Of a stretch of DNA of 64,000 nucleotides, positions 5,973-62,790 are shown piece by piece (within the stretch, counting starts at the first letter, position 1; the number at the start of each line of letters is the position of its first letter). Below the pieces are notes generated by a model. The model worked only from the letters and a program-made list of their open reading frames with translations. It was not told the origin of the DNA and did not search any database. The position numbers and the translations under genes were made by a program. The stretch is from the IMG/VR virus record IMGVR_UViG_3300023047_000002. One strand, 5' to 3'. This DNA is from a virus (Duplodnaviria > Caudoviricetes).

Positions 5973-6013
5973 GTGGTGCTGTGAGCTTTGATTCACAGTT
6001 ACACGATCATAAA
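5973..6013 (+). promoter_or_regulatory. GTGGTGCTG-class promoter (weak -10)
   Basis: GTGGTGCTG-N26-CATAAA, running into a degenerate IS-end hairpin. Confidence 0.5.
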
Positions 6014-6044
6014 TCCAACGGGATAAAGCCAGTTGGTAGTTCAC
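6011..6044 (+). repeat. Degenerate IS200/IS605 right-end hairpin
   Basis: CCAACGGGATAAAGCCAGTTGGTAGTTCAC matches the TnpB element right end. Confidence 0.65.
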
Positions 6045-6182
6045 AACAAATAATCAAGAGTTTCATGAGGTACATTCTCCGTGAAGCGGATTATTGTGAT
6101 GACTTTTAATCAAAACCAAAGGTAAAAAGTTTTTATGACTACAATTTTGCGTTCGCACAAATCATTAACAGGAGAAGACGTT

Positions 6183-6425
6183 ATGCTTATCAAGAAAGAA
6201 ACCAACAAGAAAAAACACACACCCGTACAGGTTGAAATGGTTGACCATGGTTCTCTCGCACATTATTTAGCGTTGGAGGGTTACTCTGCAGCTGAACTGA
6301 AAGTTCCTTTTGGCAACACATCTAATCATGAACTTTCAAACGAATCCTTTGAAGACGCACGTTCGGGTATTGCGTCTGTTGTTCGTAAAGCCTTGTCAAA
6401 CTATAAGAAACAGAGTGTGAAGTAA
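6183..6425 (+). CDS. Small hypothetical protein with basic leader (MLIKKE...)
   Basis: AGGAG lies upstream of the ATG at 6183. Confidence 0.6.
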   Translation: MLIKKETNKKKHTPVQVEMVDHGSLAHYLALEGYSAAELKVPFGNTSNHELSNESFEDARSGIASVVRKALSNYKKQSVK

Positions 6426-6428
6426 TCC

Positions 6429-7172
6429 ATGCAGTACGTTTACCGAGACAGCACAGGTGCTTTGGAAGCACATAGACGTAATCTTAAAGGGTTCGAGTTG
6501 TGTCTATGGGAATTACGCATCGCCGATACTGTAATGTATCCGCTGTCTAACCTTGCCCGCATCTTAGGGTACAGAAGAGTACAGGGGTTAAAGATGCTTC
6601 TGTCGCAAGCCCCTGAATTTCTTCTCACGATGGACGATGCGTTTCGTCCATACCTTCTTGATCGTATTGACTTCGACGCCTTTGAACCGACGTTTGAGGA
6701 GTTTGTTTCCGAACTTAATTACTTGGTTCCAGACGATATGTGTGAGTTCAAAAAGCGTTCCTGCTTCACGACAGTAGACGGAATCATGTTCATCTTGTCG
6801 CATAACACAATGACATCAGATCGCGTGAAAAAAGCTCTGTGTAATGTACTGGGCATAGAACGTAAAATCATTTGTCCTTCGCGTCCGGAGACGCATTTCT
6901 ATGATCGGATATGCTCAATGCTGTCACAGTGGGGATATAGGGTCGAACGACAGTATGCAGTAGGTACCTATCGCCTTGATTTCGCTGTATTTAACGAAGA
7001 CGGAAAGTTCAAGTGTGCCGTCGAGTATGACGAACCAGGACACCGATGGTACGATGAAGAAAAGGAACATGAACGTCAGGCATACCTAGGTAGGCATCAC
7101 ATTCGCGTTATTCGCGCAGACCTTAAAACAAAGCCAGAAGCCTTGTGTAAAGCAATCATAGACATAAGATAG
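6429..7172 (+). CDS. DUF559/Vsr-like endonuclease with BRO-like N-terminus
   Basis: RQYAVGTYRLDF...AVEYDEPGH...ERQAYL...VIR. Confidence 0.7.
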   Translation: MQYVYRDSTGALEAHRRNLKGFELCLWELRIADTVMYPLSNLARILGYRRVQGLKMLLSQAPEFLLTMDDAFRPYLLDRIDFDAFEPTFEEFVSELNYLVPDDMCEFKKRSCFTTVDGIMFILSHNTMTSDRVKKALCNVLGIERKIICPSRPETHFYDRICSMLSQWGYRVERQYAVGTYRLDFAVFNEDGKFKCAVEYDEPGHRWYDEEKEHERQAYLGRHHIRVIRADLKTKPEALCKAIIDIR

Positions 7173-7193
7173 ACAGATCGTGGGTAAACATAA

Positions 7194-9995
7194 ATGAGTC
7201 TTGAGAACTACAAAAACAGCACGTTTGTTAAAGCAGTACTTGCTATTGGAACGTACCAATTTGACTTTACGCGCATGAAAGCCGTACAGAGTGTGAACCT
7301 CATGCAGAACGTCTCCACAAGTTCTAAGTCCGGTATGGCTTCCGTAGATGGTACTATTACTGTAGTCGATTACTACGAAGACTTGTTTACTCTGTTGTCC
7401 GTTGTTGCATCCTCTAAGAAAGACGCAAATCTTGAAAATCTCGTAAATAACGTTAATCGTCCTGCCGTATCCTCAGGCAACACACCATATGGTATAGCCG
7501 CCGAAGGAAACTTCGGTACTATGGCAATCGGTATAAAATGTTACAGTGGAACACGTGTGTGGTTTCTGAATGTTACAGGATGGTCATATAGCATGGGTAC
7601 ACCGTCCACTGTCACATTTCAACTGAACATGAACTCGTCAGGAAATATGGGCAACACGTATCAGTCGTTGAAGGACTTTCACATGCTTGACTTCGGAAGC
7701 TCCCTCGAAGGTTCAAACATGTCTTACGACAAACACAAGCAAGCCATCCAGGATGCCATAAATTCACTGCAACCAACAGAAAGAAGTACTGACGGGACTC
7801 TTAACGAACCTTCTTTAGCGTCCATGCCTGACCAGTCATCTCCAAATATGTGCCGTGGTGTAGTTGGTGAGCGTTATTCAGAGCCTGAGGAAGTTTTCAA
7901 GGCGTTTAAAGACCTGTATAACGTTGATGTTCGCTTTGCTTCCTGTCTGAAAGGTACGGACAAATTATTCACGTTAGAAGAATGGATTTCTGAATTAAAA
8001 AAAGAAAAGAAGAAATTTTATTTCAGAAACGGTATGTACGAGTTTGTCGTACTGAACAGTTCGGCAAATGCTTCTTCTGCATCATCCATGTATGAGAGAG
8101 AATTTAGCAACATCATTGACAATTTATTCGCTGCAAAAGAAGGGTTAGAGTCTGTTTCAGACATGTCAAAGATCCCAGAATCTGATCGAGAGATTTACAC
8201 ACCACGTAAGGATGTGAACAATTCAGGATCGTACCTGGTTGCTGTAAGAAATGACGACGAGTCATTAACTCCGGCTGATATGGAAGGAACCGATTTATCG
8301 TTAGACCGTGTCGTGTTCCTTTACAACGCTCCAAAACCATACGGATTATGGAATAACAAAGTAGCCATACCGTTGGATTCAGTGTCTTCTACTGTTGACA
8401 GCAGTTTTTTAATGAACGTAAATTTCGATGTTCAAGATACGCCTAATGGAACAATGGTGTTTACGCCTAGCGGTCGTTTTATGGCAAACGACAATGCAAC
8501 AAGCACCTATATGAGACTCGCAATGATTGCACTCAGGAACAATACCGCTGGTGCAAAAGTTCAAATAACTTGCAGAAATTTCATCCATTGGGGTGACGGA
8601 CTATCACAGTATGCTGAGATTTACAGTTACACAAGTAATGGTCTTGCAGGTGTAGTGCAAGGGTTTTATCGTGTTGAAAGCGTTGCATTTCAATGGTCAG
8701 GAGGGGTTGTTTCAACCTCAGTACAGTTGGTCAATATGCCAACAGCATTGGAACAAAACGCTACGAATGCAGTCAGAGGCGGAGGTTCCAAAATTGCTGG
8801 AGCCCATGACGCAAGTGCATTACAAACACAAACCGGTATCATCAAGTCGTTGCTCAACTCTTCTGTAGAGGGAAGCAGTGACGGAACGCCTTCTGAAGAT
8901 TATGTTTCGTCTGAAGATAGAGGCGAACCCGATAACGATGGAGGAAGTATGGCTTCAAGTGCAAATTTCTGTTCGTATCTGTGCTCTAGTTACGCGAATC
9001 CAGTTCCCGTCTCCGTAGACAGAACTCCTGAAAACATTAAAAATGGTAAATTCGACAAAGCCATTGATGAACTTCTTTCTTCTGTCGGTACAAAAAGAGT
9101 TTTGGATGTGTCATCAGACTGGTTCAAGAAATACATTCTCGAAGAATGCAACATGGCACTTCTCGGTTTGCTTGGAGGTGCAGGTAACTGGGGATTCTCA
9201 AACGTCCCAAGTGGAGTACTTGACTGTATGACTTTGTGCAAAGACGGCCAAGTACGTAAAGGATGGGATGAACCTGATGAAAAGCATGGAAAGGGACTGT
9301 TCGATTACAAAGTTGGAGGACTCGGAATTGCCCATTTCGATTCTGGTGCATTGTACAACATTTATCGTTTAATAGGATTCCCTGCGAAGTACGCCACAAG
9401 AGAAATGCTTAACCTTATATTCTACGCAAATGCAAATAGTGCAGTATGGCAGGATATGAGTGACGGAAGCGGACGAAAAATTCCATACCTGGATAACGGC
9501 GGAAAGTGCATATGCGACTTCAACGGTATGGGAAAAAATGCTTCAAAACGTTCTGGTCTCTCCGCAAGATTTTCTGCGTCCAGTCCTTTTCCTTCAAAAC
9601 CGTGGCAGGATTGGGCACATGAAATTCTGTACGCACAAAACAGTGATGGCTCTTATCCGTATCAGAGGATTCTTTTCAGATATTGGGTTGACAATTTCTG
9701 GATGGAACAGCGTAACAGACTCAAGAATGCAACACTAAACGACATCTTCTGCATTGCACGTATCTCAAATTCTGTACCTGCCGTAGCATATACATGCTGT
9801 AAGCGTGACGGAACAGCGGTAGCTCCAAAAGCACAGTATAACGCATACTGCGTTGAGTATGCTAACACACGTGGAAAAACAGAAGAAGAAAAAGAAGAAA
9901 AAAGAGCTAGATATGCACGCCAGCTCGGAAATGGTCGCCGTGTCGGGGATTTGATTGGTTACTTCTATTCACAGAAAATGATCAAGACACTCTAA
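7194..9995 (+). CDS. Putative baseplate hub/tail protein with possible C-terminal lysozyme-like domain
   Basis: Hub-like segment GFYRVESVAFQWSGGVVSTSVQL, then a Ser/Gly linker and a C-terminal domain containing GGLGIAHFD. Confidence 0.45.
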   Translation: MSLENYKNSTFVKAVLAIGTYQFDFTRMKAVQSVNLMQNVSTSSKSGMASVDGTITVVDYYEDLFTLLSVVASSKKDANLENLVNNVNRPAVSSGNTPYGIAAEGNFGTMAIGIKCYSGTRVWFLNVTGWSYSMGTPSTVTFQLNMNSSGNMGNTYQSLKDFHMLDFGSSLEGSNMSYDKHKQAIQDAINSLQPTERSTDGTLNEPSLASMPDQSSPNMCRGVVGERYSEPEEVFKAFKDLYNVDVRFASCLKGTDKLFTLEEWISELKKEKKKFYFRNGMYEFVVLNSSANASSASSMYEREFSNIIDNLFAAKEGLESVSDMSKIPESDREIYTPRKDVNNSGSYLVAVRNDDESLTPADMEGTDLSLDRVVFLYNAPKPYGLWNNKVAIPLDSVSSTVDSSFLMNVNFDVQDTPNGTMVFTPSGRFMANDNATSTYMRLAMIALRNNTAGAKVQITCRNFIHWGDGLSQYAEIYSYTSNGLAGVVQGFYRVESVAFQWSGGVVSTSVQLVNMPTALEQNATNAVRGGGSKIAGAHDASALQTQTGIIKSLLNSSVEGSSDGTPSEDYVSSEDRGEPDNDGGSMASSANFCSYLCSSYANPVPVSVDRTPENIKNGKFDKAIDELLSSVGTKRVLDVSSDWFKKYILEECNMALLGLLGGAGNWGFSNVPSGVLDCMTLCKDGQVRKGWDEPDEKHGKGLFDYKVGGLGIAHFDSGALYNIYRLIGFPAKYATREMLNLIFYANANSAVWQDMSDGSGRKIPYLDNGGKCICDFNGMGKNASKRSGLSARFSASSPFPSKPWQDWAHEILYAQNSDGSYPYQRILFRYWVDNFWMEQRNRLKNATLNDIFCIARISNSVPAVAYTCCKRDGTAVAPKAQYNAYCVEYANTRGKTEEEKEEKRARYARQLGNGRRVGDLIGYFYSQKMIKTL

Positions 9996-10141
9996 CAAGG
10001 TCATCAAGCAATCACGCGTTTCTCATACCTGACGATTGTTCTTATACCACAACAAAACATTATGGCAAAAACCCGCACCATGAACGAAACTGATCAACCA
10101 TCTGAACACCAAGCGATGATGCACCCGTCTGACGTAAGATT

Positions 10142-10216
10142 TAACGACAGCCAATCTTTGAGTGGTAAAAACGTAGTAGAGTTTCAAAAACTCGATCAAG
10201 AGCTACGGGTCAGTTT
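10142..10216 (+). repeat. Remnant of the second omegaRNA/right-end family, lacking the terminal hairpin
   Basis: AACGACAGCCAATCTT...AAAAACGTAGTAGAGT...CTCGATCAAGAGCTACGGGTCAGTT matches the reverse complement of 46063-46147. Confidence 0.75.
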
Positions 10217-10496
10217 ACTCCCAAACCCATCTTGTTTTCGTGTGTGCAGTCACCTCTTCACGCTTTTTGTGCTCAAGCTGTCTCACTGACGCGATGTTAT
10301 ACTCATAAATTTTACGAGACACAACCATCGCAAAAAAGTTGCTTGATCCGATGTCTCCACAATCCGCGAAGTGTTCAGCCTCGCTAAAATTATCGAAATA
10401 GCGAGTCTTAGTCTCTCTGCGAGATTCACCGTTTCCGTCGCTGTAAGAATGAGAAATCTCGACGATCACCTTCCATAATTTTGTTGCATTTTCCAT
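10215..10496 (-). CDS. Hypothetical protein
   Basis: ORF with AGGAG RBS in a run of short co-oriented genes. Confidence 0.65.
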   Translation of the reverse strand: MENATKLWKVIVEISHSYSDGNGESRRETKTRYFDNFSEAEHFADCGDIGSSNFFAMVVSRKIYEYNIASVRQLEHKKREEVTAHTKTRWVWE

Positions 10497-10510
10497 TGTG
10501 CTTTCTCCTG

Positions 10511-10927
10511 TTAAGTTTTGTTTGCAAGGGATGTGATTTCATCCAATGCCGTTTCTATTGCCGACAATCCTTCCTTATCGTTACCATCGTATGTCTTTAG
10601 TCTGAGACGAATATCATCCACGAGTGTTTGTATCTTATTGTCTTTTGCTTGAGCGTTCTTCCTCCCACGTGCCTTATCAATTTCATCTTCAGAAAACTTA
10701 GCACGCATACACCATTCGCAATAATCGTATCGCATCATATAGCCACCCTCGAACTTACAGATTGCCATAAGATACTCTTCTCCATCTTTAATCGTGTTGT
10801 GGCAATAAGGATGTTCTTGGTTATAAGCATTATCGCATTGCAGATACGTAGCATTTTTCTTGGATCTAAAAGTCTTCACGCTTAGCGTTTCTTTCTTCAC
10901 GCTTAGCGTTTCTTTCTTTTCCATCAC
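10511..10927 (-). CDS. Hypothetical Cys/His (Zn-binding) protein
   Basis: C...YCH...YCEWC pattern. A 21-bp tandem duplication encodes KKETLSV twice. Confidence 0.6.
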   Translation of the reverse strand: MMEKKETLSVKKETLSVKTFRSKKNATYLQCDNAYNQEHPYCHNTIKDGEEYLMAICKFEGGYMMRYDYCEWCMRAKFSEDEIDKARGRKNAQAKDNKIQTLVDDIRLRLKTYDGNDKEGLSAIETALDEITSLANKT

Positions 10928-11106
10928 CGTTTTCCCATCCGGCAGTCATGTTTCGGTTTCCACAAAAGCTCTGCCGTTTTCAGTTTCCCAAGAATCGTGT
11001 GATAAACACCATCCTCTGAAACAGCACTTTGTGGAATAAACAGGTTGTAGTCGCCTCGCTTTTTCGAGCGAAACTTTACCTCGTTAAACTTGCCCTCCAT
11101 CAGCAA
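10924..11106 (-). CDS. Hypothetical protein
   Basis: Short ORF overlapping its neighbours. Confidence 0.35.
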   Translation of the reverse strand: MLMEGKFNEVKFRSKKRGDYNLFIPQSAVSEDGVYHTILGKLKTAELLWKPKHDCRMGKR

Positions 11107-16600: not shown

Positions 16601-16621
16601 ACCGTAAAATAAAGAGAGATG

Positions 16622-16720
16622 GAACTACCCACCGCCTTTAGGCGGTGGTATTCAAATCCATTAGAATTTGATTTGTACATTCTCACGAATTGGGCTTCAT
16701 GTTTCATTGAACCGTTGACT
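16622..16720 (-). repeat. Partial copy of the TnpB omegaRNA/right end
   Basis: About 95 nt colinear with 28646-28740 (GAACTACCCACCGCC...CATTAGAATTTGATTT...CATTCTCACGAATTGG). Confidence 0.85.
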
Positions 16721-16722
16721 GA

Positions 16723-17223
16723 CTATTTAAGTGTTTCCATAGGTGGGAATCTACTGTCAGTGTAAACCGTAATATCCTGTGATGCCATGCACTCTATGAT
16801 ATCGTAGATTTCATCAGCACAATGACTGCAAACCGTATGTTGTTCCTTGTATGTGATTCCTAAGCCCCCTCTGTTTTCATGTCTGAATTTGACGCGACAG
16901 GCATTAAACACATTCTCTTCATGATTAAACTCTTCCTCGTTAATCATCACTTGTTTCGTCCACTTGAGCTTGTTTCCCTTTACGAGTTTTCGTGCTATTG
17001 TGTTGAGCTGTGTCTCAAGCTCTGTACGCCAATGCTCATATGTCTCTGCTAAATCGTGACGATAACAAAGGCAATATTCCATCAGACACCAATTCTGCAA
17101 CACTTGTTCGGCATGGTCTGCCACAACCGCCTGAAACTTTGCCTTGTCCAATGCCATCTCAAAAGCACGTCGCCTGTTTATGTCTTCTTTTTGTTTTTTA
17201 ATTCTTATCATCTTTATTGCCAT
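16723..17223 (-). CDS. EMA...NWCL family protein (paralog 1)
   Basis: AFEMALDKAKFQ...QNWCLMEYC...HWRTEL, shared with 32878 and 33394. Confidence 0.75.
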   Translation of the reverse strand: MAIKMIRIKKQKEDINRRRAFEMALDKAKFQAVVADHAEQVLQNWCLMEYCLCYRHDLAETYEHWRTELETQLNTIARKLVKGNKLKWTKQVMINEEEFNHEENVFNACRVKFRHENRGGLGITYKEQHTVCSHCADEIYDIIECMASQDITVYTDSRFPPMETLK

Positions 17224-17235
17224 ATGAGACACTTC

Positions 17236-17607
17236 CTAAAGCATGTGAAGTTCACGAAGAATGCGTTTTGCTTCTGTCACATCAAATACGTCTGCATATT
17301 CTCCAGTATTCTCATCTGTTGCACACATGAGGATGTTGCCGAACAAAGGCTGCTGAAAGATGTGCATACGATAAGGAAGAATCGAAAATGCGTTGATGTT
17401 TCCGTCTTCCATATTCTCGCCGACAAACATACCCTCATCATCACAAATGAAATCATAACTGATGTTTGGGTTCTTTTTTGATTCTCCAACAGAGAACATC
17501 GTAATCAGGCGACAGTCAATTTTACTGCGGATGCTCTCCAAGGAATCGTCGATGGTGATAGTTTCGATTTTGCCGTTTTTCGGAATCCAAATCATTTTAC
17601 GTTTCAT
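17236..17607 (-). CDS. DUF3846-like protein
   Basis: SLESIRSKID...ICDDEG...N...LFGNILM pattern. Confidence 0.6.
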   Translation of the reverse strand: MKRKMIWIPKNGKIETITIDDSLESIRSKIDCRLITMFSVGESKKNPNISYDFICDDEGMFVGENMEDGNINAFSILPYRMHIFQQPLFGNILMCATDENTGEYADVFDVTEAKRILRELHML

Positions 17608-17737: not shown

Positions 17738-17843
17738 GAAAGCAACGAAACCTTATTAACTTGCACGGCGGAGTGTCGAGACGTGTCGATATGCAGAAAA
17801 GCCGTATAAAATCTATGGATGCTAACTTGCCGGTAACTTTCAC

Positions 17844-17900
17844 CAAAGGGCGAGCGGAAGCCCACGGGCTAAAGACCGTTGGCTTTCGGCTCACTTATGG
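17844..17900. repeat. Two IS200/IS605 left ends fused head-to-head over one hairpin
   Basis: TTCAC|CAAAGGGCGAGCGGAAGCCCACGGGCTAAAG on +, and CATAAGTGAGCCGAAAGCCAACGG on -. It supplies the amidase C-terminus and stop. Confidence 0.7.
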
Positions 17901-18546
17901 CAAACATACGTAAAATTCCTTGTGCGATACCACGTGCAAGAGCTTTCTTGTACTCATCTGTCGAAAGCAGCTCTACTTCATTCGCATGAGACATAAAACC
18001 GCATTCAACCACCAAAGACGGCATAGTAGTATGTTTGAGTGTGTAGTATGTGCTGTTCGCCTTAGCACCACGGTTAATTATTGGATGCTCCGTACCGTCT
18101 TTTTCTGTTACAGTAAAATCCTTTACCTGTTCCATGATACTTCTCTGTACAACAGAAGCGAACGTCTTTGACTTAGAGCTCGTAGAGAAATAAAATGTTT
18201 CAATACCGCTCGCTGTTTCACCTTTATACGAGTTGCAGTGAATTGAAACGAAGCACGTAGCTTTATCCAAATTGGCTATGTTACAGCGTGACGGCAATGT
18301 AACAGTGTCATCTGAAGCTCTGGTCATAATGACGTCAACAGGAGGTTTGGGGTCATCAGGACAAAAGTCGTTCATCATGAAATCACCAGTAAGCGTGTCC
18401 CGTGTCGCATACAGTAAATATGACGCTACGTATAAAGAGATATCGAGGACGATGTCTTTTTCTTTGTGCTTTTTATTATGTGACACAGCCCCCGGTGCAG
18501 ACCCACCATGTCCTGGATCTATGCAAATATTTGGTAATTTAGCCAT
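17869..18546 (-). CDS. N-acetylmuramoyl-L-alanine amidase (Amidase_3)
   Basis: Motifs IDPGHGG, EKD, VSIHCNS and LVVECGFM. Confidence 0.92.
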   Translation of the reverse strand: MAKLPNICIDPGHGGSAPGAVSHNKKHKEKDIVLDISLYVASYLLYATRDTLTGDFMMNDFCPDDPKPPVDVIMTRASDDTVTLPSRCNIANLDKATCFVSIHCNSYKGETASGIETFYFSTSSKSKTFASVVQRSIMEQVKDFTVTEKDGTEHPIINRGAKANSTYYTLKHTTMPSLVVECGFMSHANEVELLSTDEYKKALARGIAQGILRMFAISEPKANGL

Positions 18547-18601
18547 AAACAACACCTCCGTGCCCCAACAAACATATACTGTTTCGATAGATTCAGGGTC
18601 T

Positions 18602-18642
18602 GTGGTGCTGTTAAATCTGTGTAAGTCATCGTATGCTAAAAT
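18602..18642 (+). promoter_or_regulatory. GTGGTGCTG-class promoter
   Basis: GTGGTGCTG-N26-TAAAAT with TGc extension. Confidence 0.75.
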
Positions 18643-18703
18643 GACGATTTAAAGCAACGGTATTTCGTCGTTGCTCTTTTCTCAAATACTAGGAGAACAA
18701 ACA

Positions 18704-21079
18704 ATGGCATTAGAATCCACACGTACAATTAAAGAACTATCCGAAGAATGCGAAGCACGGAGACTTCACGTGAAACCAACAGGTAAGAATGGCAAATATT
18801 TAAAAGAGGATTATATACGTGCGTTACGTGCTGATTATCTTGTTGAGCGTTACGGCGAACCGGACGGAGTTCCGTTTCCTTTACGGTTCATGCTGACGAT
18901 GGACTGTCCGATGCTGTGTAAACGATACGCTGCGATTAAGAAACCATCAGAGCAAATTGCCATATGGAAAAACGACGGAAAATACGCAGTTGAAGAGAAA
19001 ATCGATGGTTGTTTTCATTATTCAACACCAGTTCTTCTCGCTGATGGAACCACAATGCCCATAGGAGAAATCGTTGAAAAGAAACTTTCAATAGAAGTGC
19101 TTTCGTTTGATGAAACAACGCAAACACTGGTGCCTAGAAAAGTAGTCAGTTGGTTTGACAATGGGTATAAAAAGGCTTCCCAGTGGTTGAGGTTGAAAAA
19201 TATAGGCAAGACCAACGCACCATTCAGAAATGTTCGCCATCAAGGTGTTTTAATAACTCGTAATCATTCCATTTGGTCGGAAGGAGGATGGTTACCTGCC
19301 GAAGCTGCTAAAACTGTGAACATGATTACTCTTGGCATGAATAAAACACAAAAGCAAGTCATGTATGGATGTGTGCTTGGTGACGGCACGTGTTCGTATT
19401 CACGTAAAGAAGACAAGAACGCTTATTTTCAGTTTGTTCATTCTGTGAAGCAGAAAGACTACTTTGACAAAAAAGCTCTTTTGTTTTCTAGGTTTCCTCA
19501 CAAAATTTCTGTAAACACATCTGGCTATGGTTCTGAGATTCATTCGTTTCGTGTAAATGCTTGTGCTGATGCCACAAGTCTTCGGACAAATGGATATTGT
19601 GATGGTCATCGTAAAGTCACACAAAGCTACTTATCCGAAGTTGGAACCCTTGGACTTGCTATATGGTTTATGGATGATGGTTCACGTATAAAAGAAAGAG
19701 ATGAACTTGCATGTCATTCAACAAATAAATTCTCTCGTGCAACCTTCTCAGCTTATCGGTACACTGAAAGTGACGTTCGAGAGCTTGTGTCGTGGTTAAA
19801 TTCCTATGGCTATGAGGCGTCTGCTCACATGACAACACGAAAAAGTAAAAATCTTGGGTATGTAATCCAGTTGTCATCCAGTGGGAGTCAGTTATTTTTC
19901 AAAGACATCGCACCATATGTTCCTGTCTCAATGGAATACAAACTGCCTTTGGAGTTTCGTGGGGGACATAAAGAGTGTTGGTGGGATAACAACTCACCGG
20001 ACTACAAAACTGTCTCGACACCTGTTACATGGAGCTTTAATGACCGCAGTAATTGTGACCGTACAATAACATCAACGAAGGCATACGATATTGAAGTAGA
20101 AGGATGTCACAGCTATGTGGCTAATGGTATGGTCGTTCACAATTCCAGAAGCATCTTGATTTATGATGCAGAACGTAAAGAGTTCGACTTTTACTCGCGC
20201 CACAATAGCGTTACAGACTTTTTGCCTATCTCGTACAAGAGCACTATCCGTACTTTCGGAACATTCACATCAGATACTAACTTCGTTCTCGACTGTGAAA
20301 TCATCGCAACCAATTCAAACACAAAAGCTCGTAAGACATGCACCACTCAGCTTAATTCAACATCTGCTTTGCTTGCGATGAACCCGGCAGAAAGTTTTGA
20401 AATTCAAAAGGATAGTCCGTTGATGTTCGTCATCTTTGACTGCCTTTACGATGGCGTTGATTTGCGTTCGCTTCCGTGGAAGGAACGTCATCCTCATGCC
20501 GAACGTCTTGCGAAAGAACTTTCCGACGCAGGGTTCCTATGCAAGATCAATCCATACGTGCTTGAAAACAAACGTGACTTCTATGAAAACATCATCCGAC
20601 AGGGCGGGGAAGGCATTGTTGCAAAATTGGTTGATGCACCTTACACATCAACAACTTCACGAACTAACGATATGATTAAAGTCAAGAGAACCATTCAATG
20701 TGATCTGCTCCGTGATTTGGACGCGTGGGTGTCTGGTTACACAGAAGCAACAAAAGGAAAAGCCAATGAAAACTATATCGGAGGTCTTTGTTTCTCCGTA
20801 AAGATTCGTGACAAGGAAGGAAACGTATCCGTTCGTGAAATCGGACGTGTTGCAGGTATTCCACAAGATCTCCGTATTGAGATGACTGATTACGACGATA
20901 ATGGAAACCCAAAGCTGAAACATGAATACTATGGTCGTGTTGCAACGCTGTCAGGGCAGGACATTTCCGGCGTCAATATGCGAATCACACATTGCACGTT
21001 GAAAGAATGGCGTCCTGATAAAGGACCATCAGACTGTGAAACACTCGAAATGTCTGAATTGGAAAAACTCATTCTGTGA
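18704..21079 (+). CDS. ATP-dependent DNA ligase, intein-containing
   Basis: Motif I EEKIDG|SR, plus LDCEII, FVIFDCL, GGEGIVAK, IKVKR and WRPDK. Confidence 0.9.
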   Translation: MALESTRTIKELSEECEARRLHVKPTGKNGKYLKEDYIRALRADYLVERYGEPDGVPFPLRFMLTMDCPMLCKRYAAIKKPSEQIAIWKNDGKYAVEEKIDGCFHYSTPVLLADGTTMPIGEIVEKKLSIEVLSFDETTQTLVPRKVVSWFDNGYKKASQWLRLKNIGKTNAPFRNVRHQGVLITRNHSIWSEGGWLPAEAAKTVNMITLGMNKTQKQVMYGCVLGDGTCSYSRKEDKNAYFQFVHSVKQKDYFDKKALLFSRFPHKISVNTSGYGSEIHSFRVNACADATSLRTNGYCDGHRKVTQSYLSEVGTLGLAIWFMDDGSRIKERDELACHSTNKFSRATFSAYRYTESDVRELVSWLNSYGYEASAHMTTRKSKNLGYVIQLSSSGSQLFFKDIAPYVPVSMEYKLPLEFRGGHKECWWDNNSPDYKTVSTPVTWSFNDRSNCDRTITSTKAYDIEVEGCHSYVANGMVVHNSRSILIYDAERKEFDFYSRHNSVTDFLPISYKSTIRTFGTFTSDTNFVLDCEIIATNSNTKARKTCTTQLNSTSALLAMNPAESFEIQKDSPLMFVIFDCLYDGVDLRSLPWKERHPHAERLAKELSDAGFLCKINPYVLENKRDFYENIIRQGGEGIVAKLVDAPYTSTTSRTNDMIKVKRTIQCDLLRDLDAWVSGYTEATKGKANENYIGGLCFSVKIRDKEGNVSVREIGRVAGIPQDLRIEMTDYDDNGNPKLKHEYYGRVATLSGQDISGVNMRITHCTLKEWRPDKGPSDCETLEMSELEKLIL
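19010..20143 (+). mobile_element. Intein (378 aa) with LAGLIDADG homing endonuclease in ligase motif I
   Basis: CFHYSTPVLLADG...TRNH...VVHN|S; endonuclease motifs GCVLGDG and AIWFMDDG. Confidence 0.92.
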
Positions 21080-21237: not shown

Positions 21238-24200
21238 ATGTCTGACGAACTTTATACCAATAATGATGAATGGATGGACAACCCTGAGGACATTAACGAT
21301 AACGACACCGAAGATAAAGAGGACGTTTCATATCTGTTCAACACACCTGACTTTCTTAAACCAAACACAGACACAGAATCTCAAAATGTAACCTTGTCAA
21401 CAATCATAAATTCAAGATTACAAGGTTATGGAGTTGTCAAGGATTTTGAAAACGAAGACCGTAAAGAAGTGGAAACGTCTCCTGATGAACAGCTTCGTGC
21501 TTCACTGAAACAGAAGACTTTCTCCAAGTCTGAAATTCAGAGGTCTATTGATGACTTTCGCCGTGAGGTACAAACAAAGATAACGACGAAAGACCTTGTA
21601 GACACAATCGTTGAAGTTGCGTCTGGATACAAATCCAAAGGAGACAAACTTGACCTGCTAGGATGGGATATCCTTGATACGGAAAAGAGACATTATAAGT
21701 ATGTGCCTTTACAAGCAATTACTGATTTCTCACGCCGCGATACGACCATCCGTAAAGCCGTATTTCGTAACAGTTTTGTGAACTTCATTAAAACAGGCGA
21801 GAAAAAGTTCGTTCCTGTTCTCGGCGATGAACTTGTTTCGTTCATAATTGAAGAAGTGTTTCAGTCACCTGACTTGTTACCTGCTTCACAAGGGTACGAC
21901 ATGTTTAGACGCATGGCACGTGGTGTACGTGGCGATGGTACTCCATTCTCAGTAAGTGAACTGGCAGACAGCATTAGATTCTCTTGCACACCGGATGCAC
22001 TGCGTGTCAAATTCAATACGCTTGTGTCTCAGAATAAAAACGGCGGTTCGACATTGGTTTCATACTACGCAAAACACAATATCAGTTTGGATAAAGAACA
22101 GCTGTCACGTGATTTTTCTGCACGGATTTCGACCTCCTGCAAGCGTGTTGTCGAAAGCGGTCAGTTCGGTTTTGTTCAAGAAGAAACCATCGACACTTTA
22201 AAAGCGATGGACTCTATTATTCAAGAGATGATAAAGCGTAACCTTTTCCATGTACTTATAGGACCCGCAGGGTCTGGCAAGGCGATGCCGAAAGACATGA
22301 AAATCCCAACCCCTGATGGTGAGAAAACTTTTGGAGAACTCAAAGTAGGAGACTTTGTATTTGACCGTAAGGGACACCCAACTAAAGTTTTAGGTGTGTA
22401 TGATCGTGGCGTTCGTCCGTGTTTTGAGCTTACTTTTTCAGACGGTAGAAAAACACGTTGCTGTGACGAACATCTGTGGACTTGTTATACTTCAAAAAAC
22501 AACTTCAAAACTCTTACATTAAGGGAGATGATGGAACTTGGAATCCGTCACGAAGGTCGCAAAGAAGGTGCGAGATTCCGTATACCAACAAACGAATGCG
22601 TCGAATATGAGCAAAAGACTTTACCCGTTCACCCGTACATCGTCGGTGCATTCCTCGGTGACGGGTGCTGTAAAGAACTCAACCTTACCTTGTCTTCAGA
22701 CGACATTCCAGTAGTGGAGAGGGTAGCAGCTCTCTTAAATGCTACATATAAAAAGACTAGCACACAGAATTATTCATGGATATTCATAAAGAACGGGCAC
22801 CCACTTAAAACTAAGGATGTGTTTAAAGAGGTTGCTCCATGTCTCATACAGGGTTCTAATGACAAGAGGGTTCCTTCAGATTACTTGTACGGTTCCCGTG
22901 AACAAAGAATTGCTCTTCTTCAAGGACTGTTCGACACAGACGGGAGTGTGTCATACAGGTCAAACGGGATGGCAAACTTCTCAACAACAAGTAAAACTCT
23001 GTATGAAAATGTGTCTTACCTGCTGAGAAGTCTTGGTGTGCAGGTTTCAAACAAGTCAAAACCTGTATGCCGTGGACGGGTAAAACATGACGGTACATGT
23101 TCAGTCGATTATACGCTCATTACTTACTTAAAACCAGAACAGTTTGAAATGTGTTTCTCCTTGCCTAGACAGTTAGACAAGCTAAAAACAGTATATGGCA
23201 CTTTCAAACAACCTGCAAAACGTACCGACCGTGTTGCCTTAGTTGATGTGCGTGAGGTTGAACCTTGTGAACAACAATGCATTTTAGTCGATAATGAAGA
23301 ACATCTATTTCTCGCCAACGATTTCATCGTTACACACAACACACATAAAGCAGTCAATGAATACTTCCCGACTCTGGAACAAAAACGAGGTAAAGGGACG
23401 TTGCTCGTATCTCTATCCACATTGGTTGCAATCAATGGAGCTGATCGTGCAACAAAACGTAATAAACCAACCAATCCTTGTTCCATTACCATGTTCAACT
23501 TCTGTAATAAAAATCCTCTTCGTTGTGCATGGGTTACTGGGTATGACACTTACTGTATTGACGAGTTCTCACAGTGGGGACTTGAGCAGCTTGACACGTT
23601 CATGTCGATATTAAAAAGAGCTTATCAAGAGCGTTCAAACCTTGTTATTCTTGGTGACCTTGTTCAGATAGGAACATTCCTTGGCAGAGGAAATCTGCTG
23701 TACATGCTGACTGCTAATTACCCATACACGGAACTAAGCACAAACCACAGAATTAAGGACGCAAGAATCAGCGAGGTCATTGACGATATAAGAATCAGAC
23801 AGACACGCTCTTTTGAACCATTTCGGATGGATCTTATTTCATTACAAGCCTTCCTGCACAAGAAACCCTCTAAAAGTGAAATGTGTATCACTGGAAGCAA
23901 CGCGTATGCCGGACTTGTGAACGAACTAAAACTGGAAGCAGAACTTAGACAATCCATTAACGACAAACTTCCGAACTTCTATGTGCCATCAGGAACCTCC
24001 GACTGGAATGATTATGACGTATGGAATCAAAACGAAGAATGGATTCGAACACGAATGAAAAAAACATCATTGAAGGTACGACCGAAAGAGAACTACAGAT
24101 TTGAACAAGGAATCGGTAAAAGCCTTCGTGCGTCATACAGCACAAAGTTTTTACGAAATGAAACATGCATTGCAATGATGTCATCAGAGTTTACCGTATG

Positions 24201-42251: not shown

Positions 42252-42255
42252 ACAC

Positions 42256-43382: not shown

Positions 43383-43400
43383 GAAACAAAAAGTCTCCTA

Positions 43401-43422: not shown

Positions 43423-43452
43423 GTAATAATGATAGCTGCACTTTCTTTTGGT

Positions 43453-43492
43453 GTGGTGCTGGAAAAAGGACGTTCGACTTCTGTGATATAGT
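43453..43492 (+). promoter_or_regulatory. GTGGTGCTG-class promoter
   Basis: GTGGTGCTG-N25-TATAGT with TGa extension. Confidence 0.7.
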
Positions 43493-43560
43493 AGTGTGAG
43501 TATGTAGCAACTGTGGGTGGTACGGTTGCTGTCGAATGGAAGTAATCCTAATATCTGGAT

Positions 43561-43941: not shown

Positions 43942-43972
43942 ATTACCCACCGTCTTTAGCGGGTGGGATTCA
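43938..43972 (-). repeat. IS200/IS605 right-end hairpin
   Basis: GTGAATTACCCACCGTCTTTAGCGGGTGGGATTC. Confidence 0.75.
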
Positions 43973-43998
43973 AAACAGAGTATCTGGTGAGGTGTTGC

Positions 43999-44982
43999 AT
44001 GTTTCGTTCATTTGAATCAGTTAAAATTGATGATCCTGTACTTGAACTTGAATGGGAAGACCTGTCATTGATTGGCGGAGCTACTGGTCTTGCCCTAAGT
44101 CTTAAAAACAGTCTTTCGAAGTTCCTAAGAAATTATGGAGAACACGACATTCTTGAAGACTTATATCATGCAGTGGCGCTTGGTCTTAGTAATCTCCAAG
44201 AAATCGGTATGTTTGACGGTTTTTTGTCAAATCCTAATATTGAGTTTCGTGGAAAGACTAATATTTCCATACAGAATAAACTTGATAGACATCACATACA
44301 TTCAGCAGGTCGTCCTCTTGAAAAGGTCTTTAACGACTTGATTGGTATTAGAATTATCGTAGAAGATTATTCAGTATGGGAATCTGTAAAACATAAGTTT
44401 GATTCATCGGTGTGTACTGTCGTTGACATGAGATGCGGAAAGTTCCCTGATGATGGTTACAGAGCTGTTCACGTTTACTTCCAAGCTGATCACTTGCATT
44501 ATCCTGTTGAACTTCAATTCGTGTCTGAGCATGACAGTCAGTTCAACGCATGGCAACACGACCATGCATATAAGTCATCATGGTTTGCTCCTTCTGTAGG
44601 AAAGAAATTGCGTGAGTTATACGATGACTGGAAAATTCAGACAGAGGATGAGTATGTGTCAGAGCTCACTAAACTGTCATCAATGGTTACGTACTCAGAA
44701 AAAAGGACGTGGGAAGGTACGAAACTTGTTGCGTGCAGATTCGGTATAAAGGGGTGTATAGGGTACATGCCTGAAACGATTCACGAGTTAATGTACCTTT
44801 ATCGTGAACTTTGTCCCTATTGTAGAAGACAGATTCCAACAGTCGATGTAACTGTCGTTAAGGGAGAGAGTTATGCTGAGTTTAGTCCATGTACGATCTA
44901 CGCTACCTATACTGATTTTTATGCGGCGATATTCCATGATTTGTTAAGAAAACCTGAACGGCACTCACGGTGTACACCATGA
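43999..44982 (+). CDS. RelA/SpoT-domain protein (small alarmone synthetase-like)
   Basis: Motifs RGKTNIS, DLIGIR, GYRAVH, VELQ and HDHAYK; GAGGTG RBS before ATG 43999. Confidence 0.85.
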   Translation: MFRSFESVKIDDPVLELEWEDLSLIGGATGLALSLKNSLSKFLRNYGEHDILEDLYHAVALGLSNLQEIGMFDGFLSNPNIEFRGKTNISIQNKLDRHHIHSAGRPLEKVFNDLIGIRIIVEDYSVWESVKHKFDSSVCTVVDMRCGKFPDDGYRAVHVYFQADHLHYPVELQFVSEHDSQFNAWQHDHAYKSSWFAPSVGKKLRELYDDWKIQTEDEYVSELTKLSSMVTYSEKRTWEGTKLVACRFGIKGCIGYMPETIHELMYLYRELCPYCRRQIPTVDVTVVKGESYAEFSPCTIYATYTDFYAAIFHDLLRKPERHSRCTP

Positions 44983-45082
44983 ACTACCCACCCGCTAAAG
45001 GCGGTTGGTATGAATTAGGATATTAAGGTGACATGGAGACATTAAAGACATCGTTACCACCGCCTAAAGGCGGTGGTAACGA
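44979..45082. repeat. Two IS-end hairpins (44979-45010 and 45051-45082)
   Basis: TGAACTACCCACCCGCTAAAGGCGGTTGG and the perfect TCGTTACCACCGCC-TAAA-GGCGGTGGTAACGA. Confidence 0.8.
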
Positions 45083-45431
45083 GTGCCTTCGAGACACAAT
45101 GATTAACATCATTCATCCACCAATTTATCGTTATTCACTCTTCTTCAATCTTCTTCAATCTTATTCTACTTGATGATGTGCCACGAGTCTGCAATTCTGT
45201 ACTCAGTTCTTTGTACTGTTCCGAAATGAGTATTTACTTTGTGGATTCTCTTCGGTTCGCTAGCTTTAGTAGAGCAAAGAGGATCAAACATACCGTAACG
45301 GCTATCATGGATTCTATAATAGATTCTATCGTCCACATGTCTCTCCTACATTAGGCAATTAACAAATTTTAAATCTAAACACAATTTGAAACGACCCGTG
45401 ATAGAATCCACTACTCAAGCACGAATAAGAG

Positions 45432-45872
45432 TTACATGTTCTGTTTTTGTTCGGTTGCAATGGAAACTCCACCCAACGTGTTAGCCCAATTCTCAGGGAA
45501 ATGACAGTAATACCAGAGGATACTGTAATTCCCTTTCCGTCTTCTCCAATAGAGAATAACTGATGGAATAGCTACCACAAATAAGTAAAGAGGACCCAAA
45601 AACAAAGACTGAACACTGTGACCTGACTCATGCCTTAATATGTCTTCCTTAGAATCCTTGTGCGTGAAAATAAAAGGTCCCAATGACCAACACGTGTGCC
45701 AAGGATGTTTAACCCTCCACACGGTCATACCTGTATGTTCATTTTTCCAAGGTTCGATATCATGGAGTACTATTAAAACGAGCAAGGCAGCAATCACTTG
45801 TGGTAACTGCCATAAAAACAAAAGCCATACAACAGGGGAACTCAAGTTCGCATAATTGAAATCTGCTTTCAT
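45432..45872 (-). CDS. Membrane protein with HExxH metallopeptidase-like motif
   Basis: WQLPQ...SLGPFIF...HESGHSVQSLFLGPLYL, with transmembrane segments. Confidence 0.7.
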   Translation of the reverse strand: MKADFNYANLSSPVVWLLFLWQLPQVIAALLVLIVLHDIEPWKNEHTGMTVWRVKHPWHTCWSLGPFIFTHKDSKEDILRHESGHSVQSLFLGPLYLFVVAIPSVILYWRRRKGNYSILWYYCHFPENWANTLGGVSIATEQKQNM

Positions 45873-45915: not shown

Positions 45916-45964
45916 AATGATGCGAGCCGCAAACCCACAGGCTAAATCCGCGTTGGTAGTTCAC
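45916..45964 (+). mobile_element. 49-bp IS200/IS605 mini-element (degenerate)
   Basis: TTGAT|AATGATGCGAGCCGCAAACCCACAGGCTAAATCCGCGTTGGTAGTTCAC. Confidence 0.7.
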
Positions 45965-46028
45965 CGCATAGAAAAAGAGCTCACAGAATACTTTCCATGA
46001 GCTCTATCAGATGTATCAACAAACTAAC

Positions 46029-46369
46029 GTCAACTACCCACCGCCTTTAGGCGGTGGGCTTGTAACTGACCCGTAGCTCTTGGTCGAGTGTTTGACACTC
46101 TACTACGTTTTTTACCAACTTTCTTTTCAGAAGATTGGCTGTCGTTACATCGTGGGGTGATTGACTGCACCCCGTAGGCTTGAATCATGTTCAAGACCCA
46201 CTTAAACTTGAATCTTGGTGTTTAAGTTCAGAGAGTGCCTTCAGTCCAAGTACCAAACGGTTTTCTCTCAAAACCTTAAATACAAAATATCACTTAACAA
46301 AGCAAGCAAGATTTTTAGTTGGCTCGCTTACCCACGGGCTTTAGCCCGTGGGCTTCCGCTCGCCTTATG
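46029..46369 (-). mobile_element. 341-bp non-autonomous IS200/IS605 element retaining a probable omegaRNA
   Basis: Left end TTCAC|CATAAGGCGAGCGGAAGCCCACGGGCTAAAGCCCGTGGG; right end GTTACAAGCCCACCGCCTAAAGGCGGTGGGTAGTTGAC; no ORF. Confidence 0.8.
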
Positions 46370-46374
46370 GTGAA

Positions 46375-59378: not shown

Positions 59379-60002
59379 CTAAACCTCCTCACCATTATCG
59401 TAATCATCAGGATAAATACCGTCGAGAAGGTAATCATTCGGGTTGACTTCTTCGATACGAAGGTTTTCACGTACATAAAGCTGTGGATCAACGTACAGAT
59501 AACCATAGGCGTCCAAGGCCTGATCGCAGAGATCATACCAACGGTCATCACCAATACGGTTACAGATTTCATCCATGCTCATGTCTTTTATGCTTTCGAC
59601 TTCTTCAGGTGTAAAGCCATATTTCTCAGGGTCATCGAGAATGGCGTCACGTGCATAATCACCCTGAATGTCATAGATTTCATCATCAGGAACGAGCAGG
59701 TAGCTCGCGTTTTCTGCGCACCAACCGACAGCAGTTTCAAGAATCGTTTCAAGAGCACTATCGCTACCCCATACGAGCATCGTGTCAAGGAAGTATCCAT
59801 GACCGGGCCAAATACCTACCTGAAAGAGATGATCGCAGTAATTGGCATCCTCTGGATTGATGCATCCGAACGTCGTGCGCATCTCACGTTCTTTACCATC
59901 GTAACTGCTCACGTAACCCTCGCAACGACGCTTTCCAGAAGTTTTCTGCTGTGCGCTTGAGTAATGTGTTCGTAACGTGTGTTTCTTAACTTCTTTGACC
60001 AT
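59379..60002 (-). CDS. Acidic protein with basic leader
   Basis: GGAGG RBS; starts MVKEVKKHTLR. Confidence 0.7.
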   Translation of the reverse strand: MVKEVKKHTLRTHYSSAQQKTSGKRRCEGYVSSYDGKEREMRTTFGCINPEDANYCDHLFQVGIWPGHGYFLDTMLVWGSDSALETILETAVGWCAENASYLLVPDDEIYDIQGDYARDAILDDPEKYGFTPEEVESIKDMSMDEICNRIGDDRWYDLCDQALDAYGYLYVDPQLYVRENLRIEEVNPNDYLLDGIYPDDYDNGEEV

Positions 60003-61587: not shown

Positions 61588-61614
61588 AAAAAGGCACTCA
61601 TTTGAGTGCCTTTT
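61588..61614. terminator. Bidirectional terminator between convergent genes
   Basis: AAAAAGGCACTC-ATTT-GAGTGCCTTTT. Confidence 0.8.
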
Positions 61615-61622
61615 CTTTTACG

Positions 61623-62231
61623 CTATCGTTTACCATAGCGGCTTTCTTGCTTCTGACCAAACATCTCTCCAAACCATTCTTCCATATCAGAAGCATAACT
61701 GGAATAGAGATTACCATTGCCTTTCACTTTAGTACCTCGACATACTGCAATAACAGGGTATGCCTCATCATAAGTGAGTTGACCTCTGTAAGAGCTTGAG
61801 TCTTTGCACATTTTCCTTATGGCAACAGCAACAGGCGTGTCATGCCAGTACACGTAAAGACAATGCTGTATTACGTCTTTACGGTTTGAGCATGCCGAAG
61901 CATCCGTGTAATAAGTTTCAAGTGCAAACCTATGTTCCAGTGAAGACTTTCCGAACAATCGTTCCAAAACTTCGAACAAAGCATCCCACACATCGGTACG
62001 TTTTTTGTCGTTAAGGCACCCGAAAGCGGCCATGGCGTACATATAATCATAAGCATCTAAACCGAGAAGGTTCTCTTCCAACCATTCAGAAAACTCCTGA
62101 ACTGATTTGTCACGGAACTTCCATGCGAGCTTCACCAGATACTTAAAATTCTTAAAGTCCGTAGCATTTAAGTAAGAAGCACCTAACGATTCCTTACGAA
62201 TCAAAGATTTTCTCTTGTATGTAATAAGCAT
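61623..62231 (-). CDS. Hypothetical protein with basic leader
   Basis: MLITYKRKSLIRKES after AGGAG. Confidence 0.7.
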   Translation of the reverse strand: MLITYKRKSLIRKESLGASYLNATDFKNFKYLVKLAWKFRDKSVQEFSEWLEENLLGLDAYDYMYAMAAFGCLNDKKRTDVWDALFEVLERLFGKSSLEHRFALETYYTDASACSNRKDVIQHCLYVYWHDTPVAVAIRKMCKDSSSYRGQLTYDEAYPVIAVCRGTKVKGNGNLYSSYASDMEEWFGEMFGQKQESRYGKR

Positions 62232-62244
62232 ACAGCATCTCCTG

Positions 62245-62628
62245 TTAATCAAAGTTGTTGTTTTCAGGCTCTTCTCCACCTTCCTCTGGTACAGGTTCTT
62301 CTCCTTCTGGTGCAGCTTCTTCACCACCCTCACCACCTGTTTCTTCATCAGAACCGTTACCACTGTCTTCGGCATTCTCAGCTTCAGCTTCTGCAGCATC
62401 CAAGTCAATACCGATATTAGACAAGGCTTCTTCGATACGGTCAATAACTGCCTCACCTCGTGCAACACGGTCAGACAATGTGGACACAAGTTCCTGCAAC
62501 TGTGCAAGAACCACATCGAAACCCAACGAGACACGGTCAGAAGGCTGACTGTCTTCCATTGCACGTGTCTTCGTCAATGACTTAACGAAATCCTGTGAAG
62601 CAATTTCAAGTTTATCGTTTCTGTACAT
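62245..62628 (-). CDS. Acidic Glu/Gly-rich protein
   Basis: GGAG RBS; coiled coil plus acidic tail. Confidence 0.65.
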   Translation of the reverse strand: MYRNDKLEIASQDFVKSLTKTRAMEDSQPSDRVSLGFDVVLAQLQELVSTLSDRVARGEAVIDRIEEALSNIGIDLDAAEAEAENAEDSGNGSDEETGGEGGEEAAPEGEEPVPEEGGEEPENNNFD

Positions 62629-62747
62629 AATGAAATCTCCAAATCATGTGCAAAAGGTGCACATGATTTGACTATTGTGCACCATAGGTTCTTTCTGTTA
62701 GATACAAGACAGTACTAATCCATATTCTCCCAACCATAATCGCCTTT

Positions 62748-62790
62748 GTGAACTACCAACCGCCTAAAGGCGGTTGGCTTCAGGTTTCAT
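62748..62790 (-). repeat. IS200/IS605 right-end hairpin
   Basis: GTGAACTACCAACCGCCTAAAGGCGGTTGGCTTCAGG, immediately after the stop of 62790..63254. Confidence 0.8.

Follow-up and report, generated by a model that had tools for sequence, protein, structure and literature searches.

A hairpin family in a jumbo phage genome

We analyzed short hairpins scattered through a 64-kb stretch (hereafter, the window) of IMG/VR record IMGVR_UViG_3300023047_000002, part of a large tailed phage that encodes a tail sheath, helicases, many orphan genes (ORFans) and a DNA ligase whose gene is split by a LAGLIDADG endonuclease. The source genome is a large uncultured jumbo phage, and about 91% of the window is coding on our crude map of open reading frames (ORFs). 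Scans of the window found no Rfam family and no tRNA, and a megablast search of its 40–50 kb region against GenBank phages returned no match. A preliminary description of this DNA had listed 17 hairpin loci, likened their ends to those of IS200/IS605 insertion sequences (IS), and read them as a domesticated family used as terminators and recombination joints. We conclude that the hairpins are probably subterminal hairpins of IS200/IS605 elements (IS605-type) and reduction products of such elements, left by a recent burst of insertion that was followed by decay. The copies look like selfish litter that marks, and perhaps helps to make, gene-shuffling joints, and not like built-in terminators.

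All 17 listed loci, named here by position within the window, carry the described hairpin motif, in which a 9-bp GC-rich stem is closed by TTTA or TAAA. The claim of a shared core held across the set except that 43401 consists of the loop, right arm and right end only, and that 45051 has neither end motif. In the window CCCACCGCC occurs six times (0.10 expected) and a 22-nt palindrome, allowing up to two mismatches, five times (0 expected), while the signature CCMAC-N4-TWWA-N4-GTKGG, at the same tolerance, has 18 matches, roughly 15 above chance (100 dinucleotide shuffles averaged 1.9 and never exceeded 6). The three architectures reported over a single hairpin are all present: left+right (25368, 34493 and 45916), right+right (32597 and 42214, the latter a perfect 18+18 palindrome) and left+left (17844). 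Every copy is intergenic or on the last codons of a gene according to the crude ORF map, as had been described. Beyond the 17, we found a decayed single-hairpin unit (31539–31585), a hairpin-less 3' fragment (10138–10215) and an internal tnpB fragment (45074–45222). About five copies lie on the plus strand and seven on the minus strand; relative to transcription some six are co-oriented, three opposed, three in divergent regions and three palindromic, following no rule.

Predicted folding of single-stranded DNA is strong in ten or eleven copies (−10 to −21 kcal/mol), weak in 6011, and no better than that of shuffled sequence in 30125, 31539, 32597, 43401 and 45916, so that the copies form a decay series running from −21 kcal/mol down to unfoldable. 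The arms are non-complementary in several (6011, 17844, 43938 and 45916), and 44979 joins exact copies of two distinct arm variants, CCCACCCGC and GGCGGTTGG. The exact 38-nt palindrome at 42214 is absent from IMG/VR.

For comparison we used related IMG/VR contigs of 55–252 kb. The closest relative comprises two contigs, G004 and G006, from one metagenome, near-complete and abutting at window 3926/4055, which we infer to be a single genome (hereafter, phage R); it is ~87% identical to the whole window and colinear with it except for one inverted block at 11.1–18.5 kb. The other relatives compared were G003 (a 252-kb phage), G005, and L049, a second relative lacking the copies.

Parent elements and the copies they left

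Two of the listed loci, 28644 and 30125, are real but are not orphan hairpins; they form the right (28644) and left (30125) termini of IS-A, a complete tnpB element and a parent that the preliminary description had left unlinked to the family. Its limits were set by homology to copies that occupy other loci in G003, G004 and G005. The tnpB ORF (28660–30036, minus strand) has family hairpins at both ends, and its product matches PHROG 506 (E 3e-91), the Pfam families OrfB_IS605, Cas12f1-like_TNB and HTH_OrfB_IS605, and the ISDra2 TnpB structures 8h1j and 8exa (E 5e-55). Conserved columns of the alignment hold its GLD, VET and RDHN motifs (D/E/D), which we take to be the catalytic residues, as well as both CxxC pairs, and the protein is apparently intact, judging from its sequence. 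At the right end (28644–28680), which reads ...GAAG-hairpin-TAGTTCAC, the 3' end of tnpB runs into hairpin 28644; the left-end hairpin (30123–30175), upstream of tnpB, is decayed.

The second parent, IS-B, is complete in G003, where a left hairpin is followed by tnpA, a divergent tnpB and a right end reading ...CAAG-CCAACCGCC-TTTA-GGCGGTTGG-TAGTTGAC. Its tnpA is the only Y1 HUH transposase gene (PF01797, E 3e-34) among the window and G003–G006. A protein-less element in the window, MITE-B (after miniature inverted-repeat transposable element, MITE), consists in its last 145 nt (46029–46173) of the IS-B 3' end with the right end CAAG-hairpin-TAGTTGAC; it is 92% identical to IS-B of G003 and G004 and, over 245 nt, 91% identical to a second MITE at another G003 locus. 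Window copies are thus physically continuous with 94–145 nt of IS-A or IS-B interior, and at least two parent lineages, the tnpB-only IS-A and the tnpA+tnpB IS-B, share one hairpin type. The members of the family, and the one gene cassette that lies between two of them, are listed below; single-hairpin units are called minis.

5997–6044, plus: mini of about 48 nt with right end ...GTTGGTAGTTCAC and a degenerate hairpin (−4.9 kcal/mol, z −3.0); atypical 18-nt left flank after TTCAC; between divergent gene starts
10138–10215, plus: IS-B 3' fragment (omega-RNA zone) ending just before the right-end hairpin; 83% identity to IS-B 1734–1821
16620–16715, minus: last 94 nt of IS-A (tnpB 3' end and right-end hairpin); 84–85% identity to 28646–28744; joined directly to the 169-aa gene 16723–17232
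17831–17899, no strand: left-end/left-end palindrome (core 17844–17894) with 15 extra nt; −12.2 kcal/mol; inserted within the last codons of gene 17869–18555
25368–25416, plus: 49-nt left+right mini after TTGAC; −11.2 kcal/mol
28644–30175, minus: IS-A, a complete tnpB-only IS605-type element after TTTAT (30176–30180)
31539–31585, minus: decayed left+right mini with no fold (z 0.1); between divergent gene starts
32597–32644, no strand: right-end/right-end palindrome with enlarged loop; left border of the three-gene cassette; its GTGAGC provides the TGA stop of glycosyltransferase gene 31725–32600
32645–34492, plus: three-gene ORFan cassette between hairpins (genes 32878–33369, 33394–33903 and 33917–34525)
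34493–34541, plus: 49-nt left+right mini with perfect hairpin after TTGAC; −12.2 kcal/mol; right border of the cassette, overlapping the stop of gene 33917–34525
42214–42251, no strand: perfect 38-nt right-end/right-end palindrome; −21 kcal/mol, z −9.5
43401–43422, plus: half copy (loop, right arm, right end) with no fold; between divergent gene starts
43938–43975, minus: right-end copy GAAT-hairpin-TAATTCAC with mismatched arms; provides the TGA stop of gene 43561–43941
44979–45013, minus: right-end copy with chimeric arms; provides the stop of the RelA/SpoT-like gene 43963–44982
45051–45222, minus: perfect 32-nt palindrome without end motifs (45051–45082; −17.2 kcal/mol), adjoining an internal IS-B tnpB fragment (45074–45222)
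45919–45967, plus: 49-nt left+right mini (copy 45916) with non-complementary arms and no fold (z 0.1); edges ambiguous by 3 nt
46029–46371, minus: MITE-B, two-ended and protein-less, 343 bp; left end preceded by TTCAC, guide GAAG
62748–62785, minus: right-end copy GAAG-hairpin-TAGTTCAC with perfect hairpin; −12.6 kcal/mol; between two minus-strand genes

IS-A also has an unusual setting. Upstream of its left end stands a second copy, 84% identical, of the ~150 bp immediately 3' of its right end, where a small Cys-rich gene begins (28380–28643 and 30181–30325); in phage R this sequence is single and follows TTTAT. Within the upstream copy a 25-nt stretch matches the presumed TnpB guide perfectly, but the word adjacent to it is CTTGT. 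This layout of homology, IS and homology resembles what integration of a circle of IS plus flank by homologous recombination, or an aberrant homing repair, might leave.

Geometry and guide pairing of the ends

In IS608, cleavage on the left falls outside the element, 19 nt 5' of the hairpin foot, and on the right 10 nt 3' of it; a 4-nt guide 5' of the foot reads both cleavage sites (PMC3201880), with pairings that include A+16:T-3 and A+17:T-4 (PMC5934647). In the present family the corresponding distances are 17–19 nt on the left, or 22 nt where G003 and G004 have full-length IS-B left ends, and 8 nt on the right. We scored pairing as g1:c2, g2:c1 and g4:c4, for which a match at all three positions has a chance of 1/64 each. 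All eight right ends of IS-A, IS-B and MITE-B matched at 3/3; the four IS-A right ends read GAAG...TCAC and the four IS-B/MITE-B right ends CAAG...TGAC, a compensatory swap at g1:c2. Among left ends, 7 of 11 matched at 3/3, with five different guide/target pairs, and 27 of the 33 scored positions pair. Because the left-end cleavage word is flanking phage DNA, such a match reports real guide-directed insertion. The left ends with full matches (guide/target) were:

IS-A in the window: AAAA/TTAT
IS-B in G004: GAAA/TCTT
MITE-B: GAAG/TCAC
25368: CAAG/TGAC
17844, both strands: GAAG/TCAC and AAAG/TTGC
45916: CAAA/TGAT, edge ambiguous

Parentage, asymmetric geometry, guide/cleavage pairing and insertion without target duplication together indicate that the hairpins are, as had been proposed, ends of IS200/IS605 elements and putative TnpA substrates. 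The left target and right cleavage words are nearly identical (TTSAC), so that one hairpin can carry both end motifs. In left+right minis the left target is generally the better partner of the guide, and the unit's own right cleavage word the poorer one. Collapse of a two-ended element by recombination between its near-identical hairpins would leave this pattern, which mildly favors that origin for the 49-nt units.

A recent, lineage-specific burst

Alignment of relatives, which had been suggested as a check, revealed four clean empty sites in phage R, those of IS-A, MITE-B, 17844 and 45916. The stretches 17831–17899 and 45919–45967 are each replaced by 0 bp and 46029–46371 by 5 bp, and the empty site of IS-A reads TTTAT followed directly by CAAACAAACG, that is, the target word and then the right flank. 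The two-ended elements were inserted 3' of a short target with no target duplication, beside a tetranucleotide that pairs with their own guide, which is the mode of action of the Y1 HUH transposase TnpA; slight uncertainties concern 17844 and 45916. Phage R and L049 share none of the 17 copies, and every insertion is confined to this phage lineage. Together with the four empty sites, their absence from the closest relative points to a recent lineage-specific burst and not to conserved, domesticated sites, and the state of the copies, from perfect to unfoldable, likewise speaks against the proposed domestication. Signature density, at up to two mismatches, is ~28 per 100 kb in the window, 3.6–7.9 in the relatives and about 3 in shuffles, an excess indicating that the family expanded recently in this lineage.

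Other slots are filled differently in phage R: that of 6011 holds a 662-bp repeat array, that of 25368 a 506-bp repeat array, and the junction of 62748 has 791 unrelated bp. The window has one such array (36475–36806), composed of a conserved scaffold of ~210 nt and then 32-nt direct repeats (TACACCCATAWTAAATGYCATACCTCTGAGAC) with unique spacers of ~34 nt, a layout that resembles a CRISPR (clustered regularly interspaced short palindromic repeats) mini-array and has no Rfam match. Phage R has six copies, including G006 95998–96669, 74052–74559, 83021–83304, 59478–59729 and 21767–21993, two of which occupy the same intergenic slots as minis 6011 and 25368.

Two insertions of ~1.1 kb, at 19008–20165 and 22284–23337, lie in the DNA ligase gene (LAGLIDADG endonuclease) and in a gene for a 1113-aa helicase/terminase-like protein. 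Both are absent from phage R, which suggests that they are further selfish elements of the intein or homing-endonuclease type.

The hairpins are poor candidates for terminators

The proposed role in termination found little in its favor. A clear T-rich tail follows only 45051 and a weak one 25368, 14–15 of the 17 copies having no T-tract, and terminator-like sites are no more numerous than in shuffles. Divergent gene starts flank three copies (6011, 31539 and 43401). T-tract terminators that belong to the phage itself, unrelated in sequence to the hairpins, stand beside copies of the family, for example at 45976–46005 and 32738–32784; the former is conserved in phage R and in the window is flanked by two insertions. 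With five or six copies unable to fold, only one or two T-tracts and three copies between divergent starts, the terminator idea is not supported, and annotators should avoid calling these hairpins terminators.

Hairpins at junctions of variable gene content

The preliminary description had also called the hairpins recombination joints, and this claim is partly supported. Many copies lie at junctions whose gene content is unlike that of relatives. Of 12 element-bearing junctions, 9 show differences from phage R that exceed 250 bp with the element itself discounted, compared with 11 of ~58 other intergenic regions (Fisher test, P about 3 × 10−4); the test rests on a hand-curated table because automated classification was confused by IS fragments matching copies elsewhere. 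Thirteen variable junctions have no hairpin, and hairpins and indels may both collect at permissive sites, so that the association may not be causal. That description had stated beforehand that unconserved copies with no link to gene gain or loss would indicate simple IS decay; the copies are indeed unconserved, but a link to gene gain or loss is seen.

One example is the cassette 32645–34492, bracketed by two hairpins and missing from phage R and L049. Its three genes have no Pfam family, and the first two are paralogs of gene 16723–17232. That gene lies in a block (16619–17236, an IS-A stub plus the gene) which is absent at the same site in phage R, where the gene is found elsewhere. The three diverged paralogs (16723–17232, 32878–33369 and 33394–33903) each adjoin family hairpins in the window and are 33–37% identical to the phage R copies (G006 61.5 kb; G004 12.0–12.5 kb). 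We considered a composite transposon for the 32.6–34.5 kb cassette and rejected it, as the flanking ends are not left then right on one strand.

The variable island at 42.2–46.4 kb has eight hairpins in 4.2 kb and mixed gene orientations, and within it 41966–45447, with five hairpins, is wholly different from phage R. Here the homology of gene 43561–43941 to G005 stops exactly at the edge of hairpin 43938. This gene, a 126-aa ORFan just upstream of the RelA/SpoT-like gene 43963–44982, has 84% DNA identity to G005 62558–62914, the genomes being otherwise ~67% identical, which suggests a recent exchange.

The block inverted relative to phage R (11106–18546, ~7.4 kb) has the IS-B fragment 10138–10215 in one of its endpoint regions (9991–11106) and no family element seen in the other (18546–18704). 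Palindromic forms were considered as inversion endpoints and rejected, because neither limit of the inverted block coincides with one.

Occurrence of the ends and of TnpA and TnpB beyond this phage

None of 185,579 species genomes contains the strict end pattern. A relaxed right-end pattern is common in metagenome-assembled genomes (MAGs) of gut and rumen Clostridia and occurs in ~80 IMG/VR contigs, and some of the loci encode TnpA homologs with 50–67% identity. Among 50,697 GenBank phage records, 403 had TnpB matches and 104 TnpA matches, so that IS605-type elements in phages are not new in themselves. In the MAG HGM20068, labelled Enterobacterales (L068–L147, e.g., CAAGDP01 contigs), more than 20 contigs terminate in the right-end motif, as expected of a high-copy element that breaks assemblies.

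Proposed origin and alternative readings

We propose that TnpA acted in trans, supplied from elsewhere in the genome, by a co-infecting phage or by the host, which is probably a member of the gut or rumen Clostridia. Internal deletions may have shrunk the elements from a full IS to a gene-less form of ~340 bp and then to a 49-nt one-hairpin unit, either by recombination between near-identical left and right hairpins or by template switching at hairpins, and the same processes could have given the right-only stubs, palindromic forms and chimeric arms. Copies would persist where they are tolerated, in intergenic DNA and on last codons, where the element supplies a TGA or TAG stop. As ~40-nt portable homologies and breakage-prone hairpins they would mark, and probably promote, some mosaic joints, a by-product and not an evolved function.

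Several observations weigh against this account. As the preliminary description had noted for the window, no tnpA was found by tblastn or by a six-frame search with a profile from 10 homologs, and none was found in G004, G006 or G005. Copy 45916 can be delimited only to within 3 nt, and 17844 has 15 unexplained extra nt. Four of the 11 left ends pair only partially, at 2/3 in 34493 and IS-A of G004 and at 1/3 in IS-B and the MITE of G003. The junction association is stronger than pure junk would predict, and the copies may have a function. Finally, G003 (196898) and G004 (130964) carry near-identical counterparts of mini 34493 at loci unrelated to its own, three phage genomes in all, so that the 49-nt units may either move as such or be products of collapse.

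That last point has a more ambitious extension, in which the 49-nt units are the smallest working IS200/IS605 transposon and, with the stubs, serve as hubs for cassette capture and exchange in large phages, a counterpart of integron attC sites derived from a transposon; the shared word TTSAC would make so small a unit feasible, but we regard this reading as rather unlikely. We find it unlikely, too, that the hairpins form an integron-like system of portable joints, working sites of cassette exchange by TnpA strand transfer or hairpin-directed recombination. Such a system would account for the three-gene cassette held between two hairpins and absent from two relatives, the block 16619–17236 inserted at a hairpin edge, the eight hairpins of the variable island, the homology that ends at hairpin 43938, the two variants exactly matched by the arms of 44979, and the excess of differing element junctions. 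However, the cassettes do not have an upstream left end and a downstream right end on one strand, as TnpA mobilization requires, their genes are of mixed orientation, three or four copies simply inserted and left their surroundings as they were, and no cassette was found to recur at a second place together with its flanking hairpins; the hairpin-free variable junctions, and the possibility that permissive sites merely gather both hairpins and indels, also count against it. The link of the hairpins to mosaic joints is suggestive but unproven.

Retention of the hairpins as domesticated REP-like (repetitive extragenic palindrome) elements, kept for ending or stabilizing transcripts, would fit their extragenic or gene-end placement, their density, which is similar to that of bacterial REPs, the strong hairpins of about 10 copies, the T-rich tail at 45051 and the stop codons that several provide. 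We nevertheless consider it very unlikely, given that no copy is conserved in relatives, that five or six cannot fold and most have no T-tract, that orientation to transcription is mixed, with three copies between divergent starts, and that the phage's own conserved terminators adjoin copies; nor was a single-copy RAYT-type (REP-associated tyrosine transposase) gene flanked by repeats found, the sole Y1 gene found lying inside an IS with tnpB in G003. Scarcely probable is a set of distributed guide RNAs, in which the right ends that keep a scaffold (16620–16715, 46029–46273 and 10138–10215) would make omega-RNAs directing phage TnpB nucleases against rival phages without the insertion, for homing or exclusion. 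The seemingly intact TnpB with its aligned D/E/D and zinc-finger motifs is consistent with it, as is the 91% conservation of 245 nt of MITE-B with the G003 MITE between genomes only ~65% identical, and protein-less elements encoding omega-RNA have been described (PMC10055086). But the cognate IS-B-type TnpB is not in the window, and most copies, as 38–49-nt units, have no scaffold at all, so that this reading cannot explain the family. Short GC-rich hairpins are common in intergenic DNA, yet the probability that these are chance palindromes or ordinary phage terminators resembling IS ends is negligible; the enrichment (18 signature matches vs 1.9 in shuffles), the shared end motifs, the physical continuity with tnpB and tnpA elements, and the guide/cleavage covariation refute it.

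A burst of IS605-type insertion followed by decay thus leaves a large phage genome densely colonized by gene-less relics of single-strand transposons, with 18 signature matches in 64 kb. The density in the window (~28 per 100 kb) exceeds that of REPs in E. coli. The sister genome fixes insertion sites to the base and so provides a natural series from full IS to 343-bp element to 49-nt unit, and the relics offer a concrete, testable link to the mosaic joints of phage genomes. The burst also raises the question of where the transposase came from in a phage that possibly encodes none.

Comparison with known systems

Like IS608 of Helicobacter pylori and ISDra2 of Deinococcus radiodurans, the elements described here have hairpins at both ends, a 4-nt guide, insertion without duplication and a tnpB that overlaps the right end, and as in the IS605 group a Y1 HUH TnpA is present, in the IS-B copy of a relative (G003). 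They differ in residing in a large phage, in having nearly the same word (TTSAC) as left target and right cleavage site, and in that no transposase was found in the window or the closest relative.

We found no literature on IS605 miniature elements in phage genomes, and papers on TnpB in huge phages had no bearing on the family. Palindrome-associated transposable elements (PATEs) are protein-less IS200/IS605 derivatives served by TnpA in trans, some with an omega-RNA region (PMC3119063, Haloquadratum walsbyi; PMC10055086, Geobacillus stearothermophilus, Meers et al. 2023). MITE-B, protein-less, with both ends and present or absent as a unit, fits this class fully. Most copies here, however, are 38–49 nt long with a single hairpin, the 49-nt units carrying both tips, a variant that we did not find described in the literature searched; many others are stubs, palindromes and chimeras that are probably immobile.

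REPs and their paired forms, REPINs, are short extragenic palindromes tied to IS200-type Y1 transposases, the RAYTs (PMC3116915, PMC3337134, PMC5581495). The present family is similar in its high density of extragenic palindromes and its doublet-like palindromic forms, but no RAYT flanked by repeats was found, none of the 17 copies is vertically shared with phage R, and each copy keeps recognizable IS left or right end tips.

The promoter-early stem-loops (PeSLs) of T4-type phages, reportedly described as shuffling joints by Arbiol, Comeau and Krisch in 2010, are said to be short stem-loops that recur where genes meet in large lytic phages and at the edges of variable modules, as the copies do here. 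PeSLs, however, are reportedly promoter and terminator cassettes with no link to transposons, whereas the copies in this phage are transposon ends, mostly without such features.

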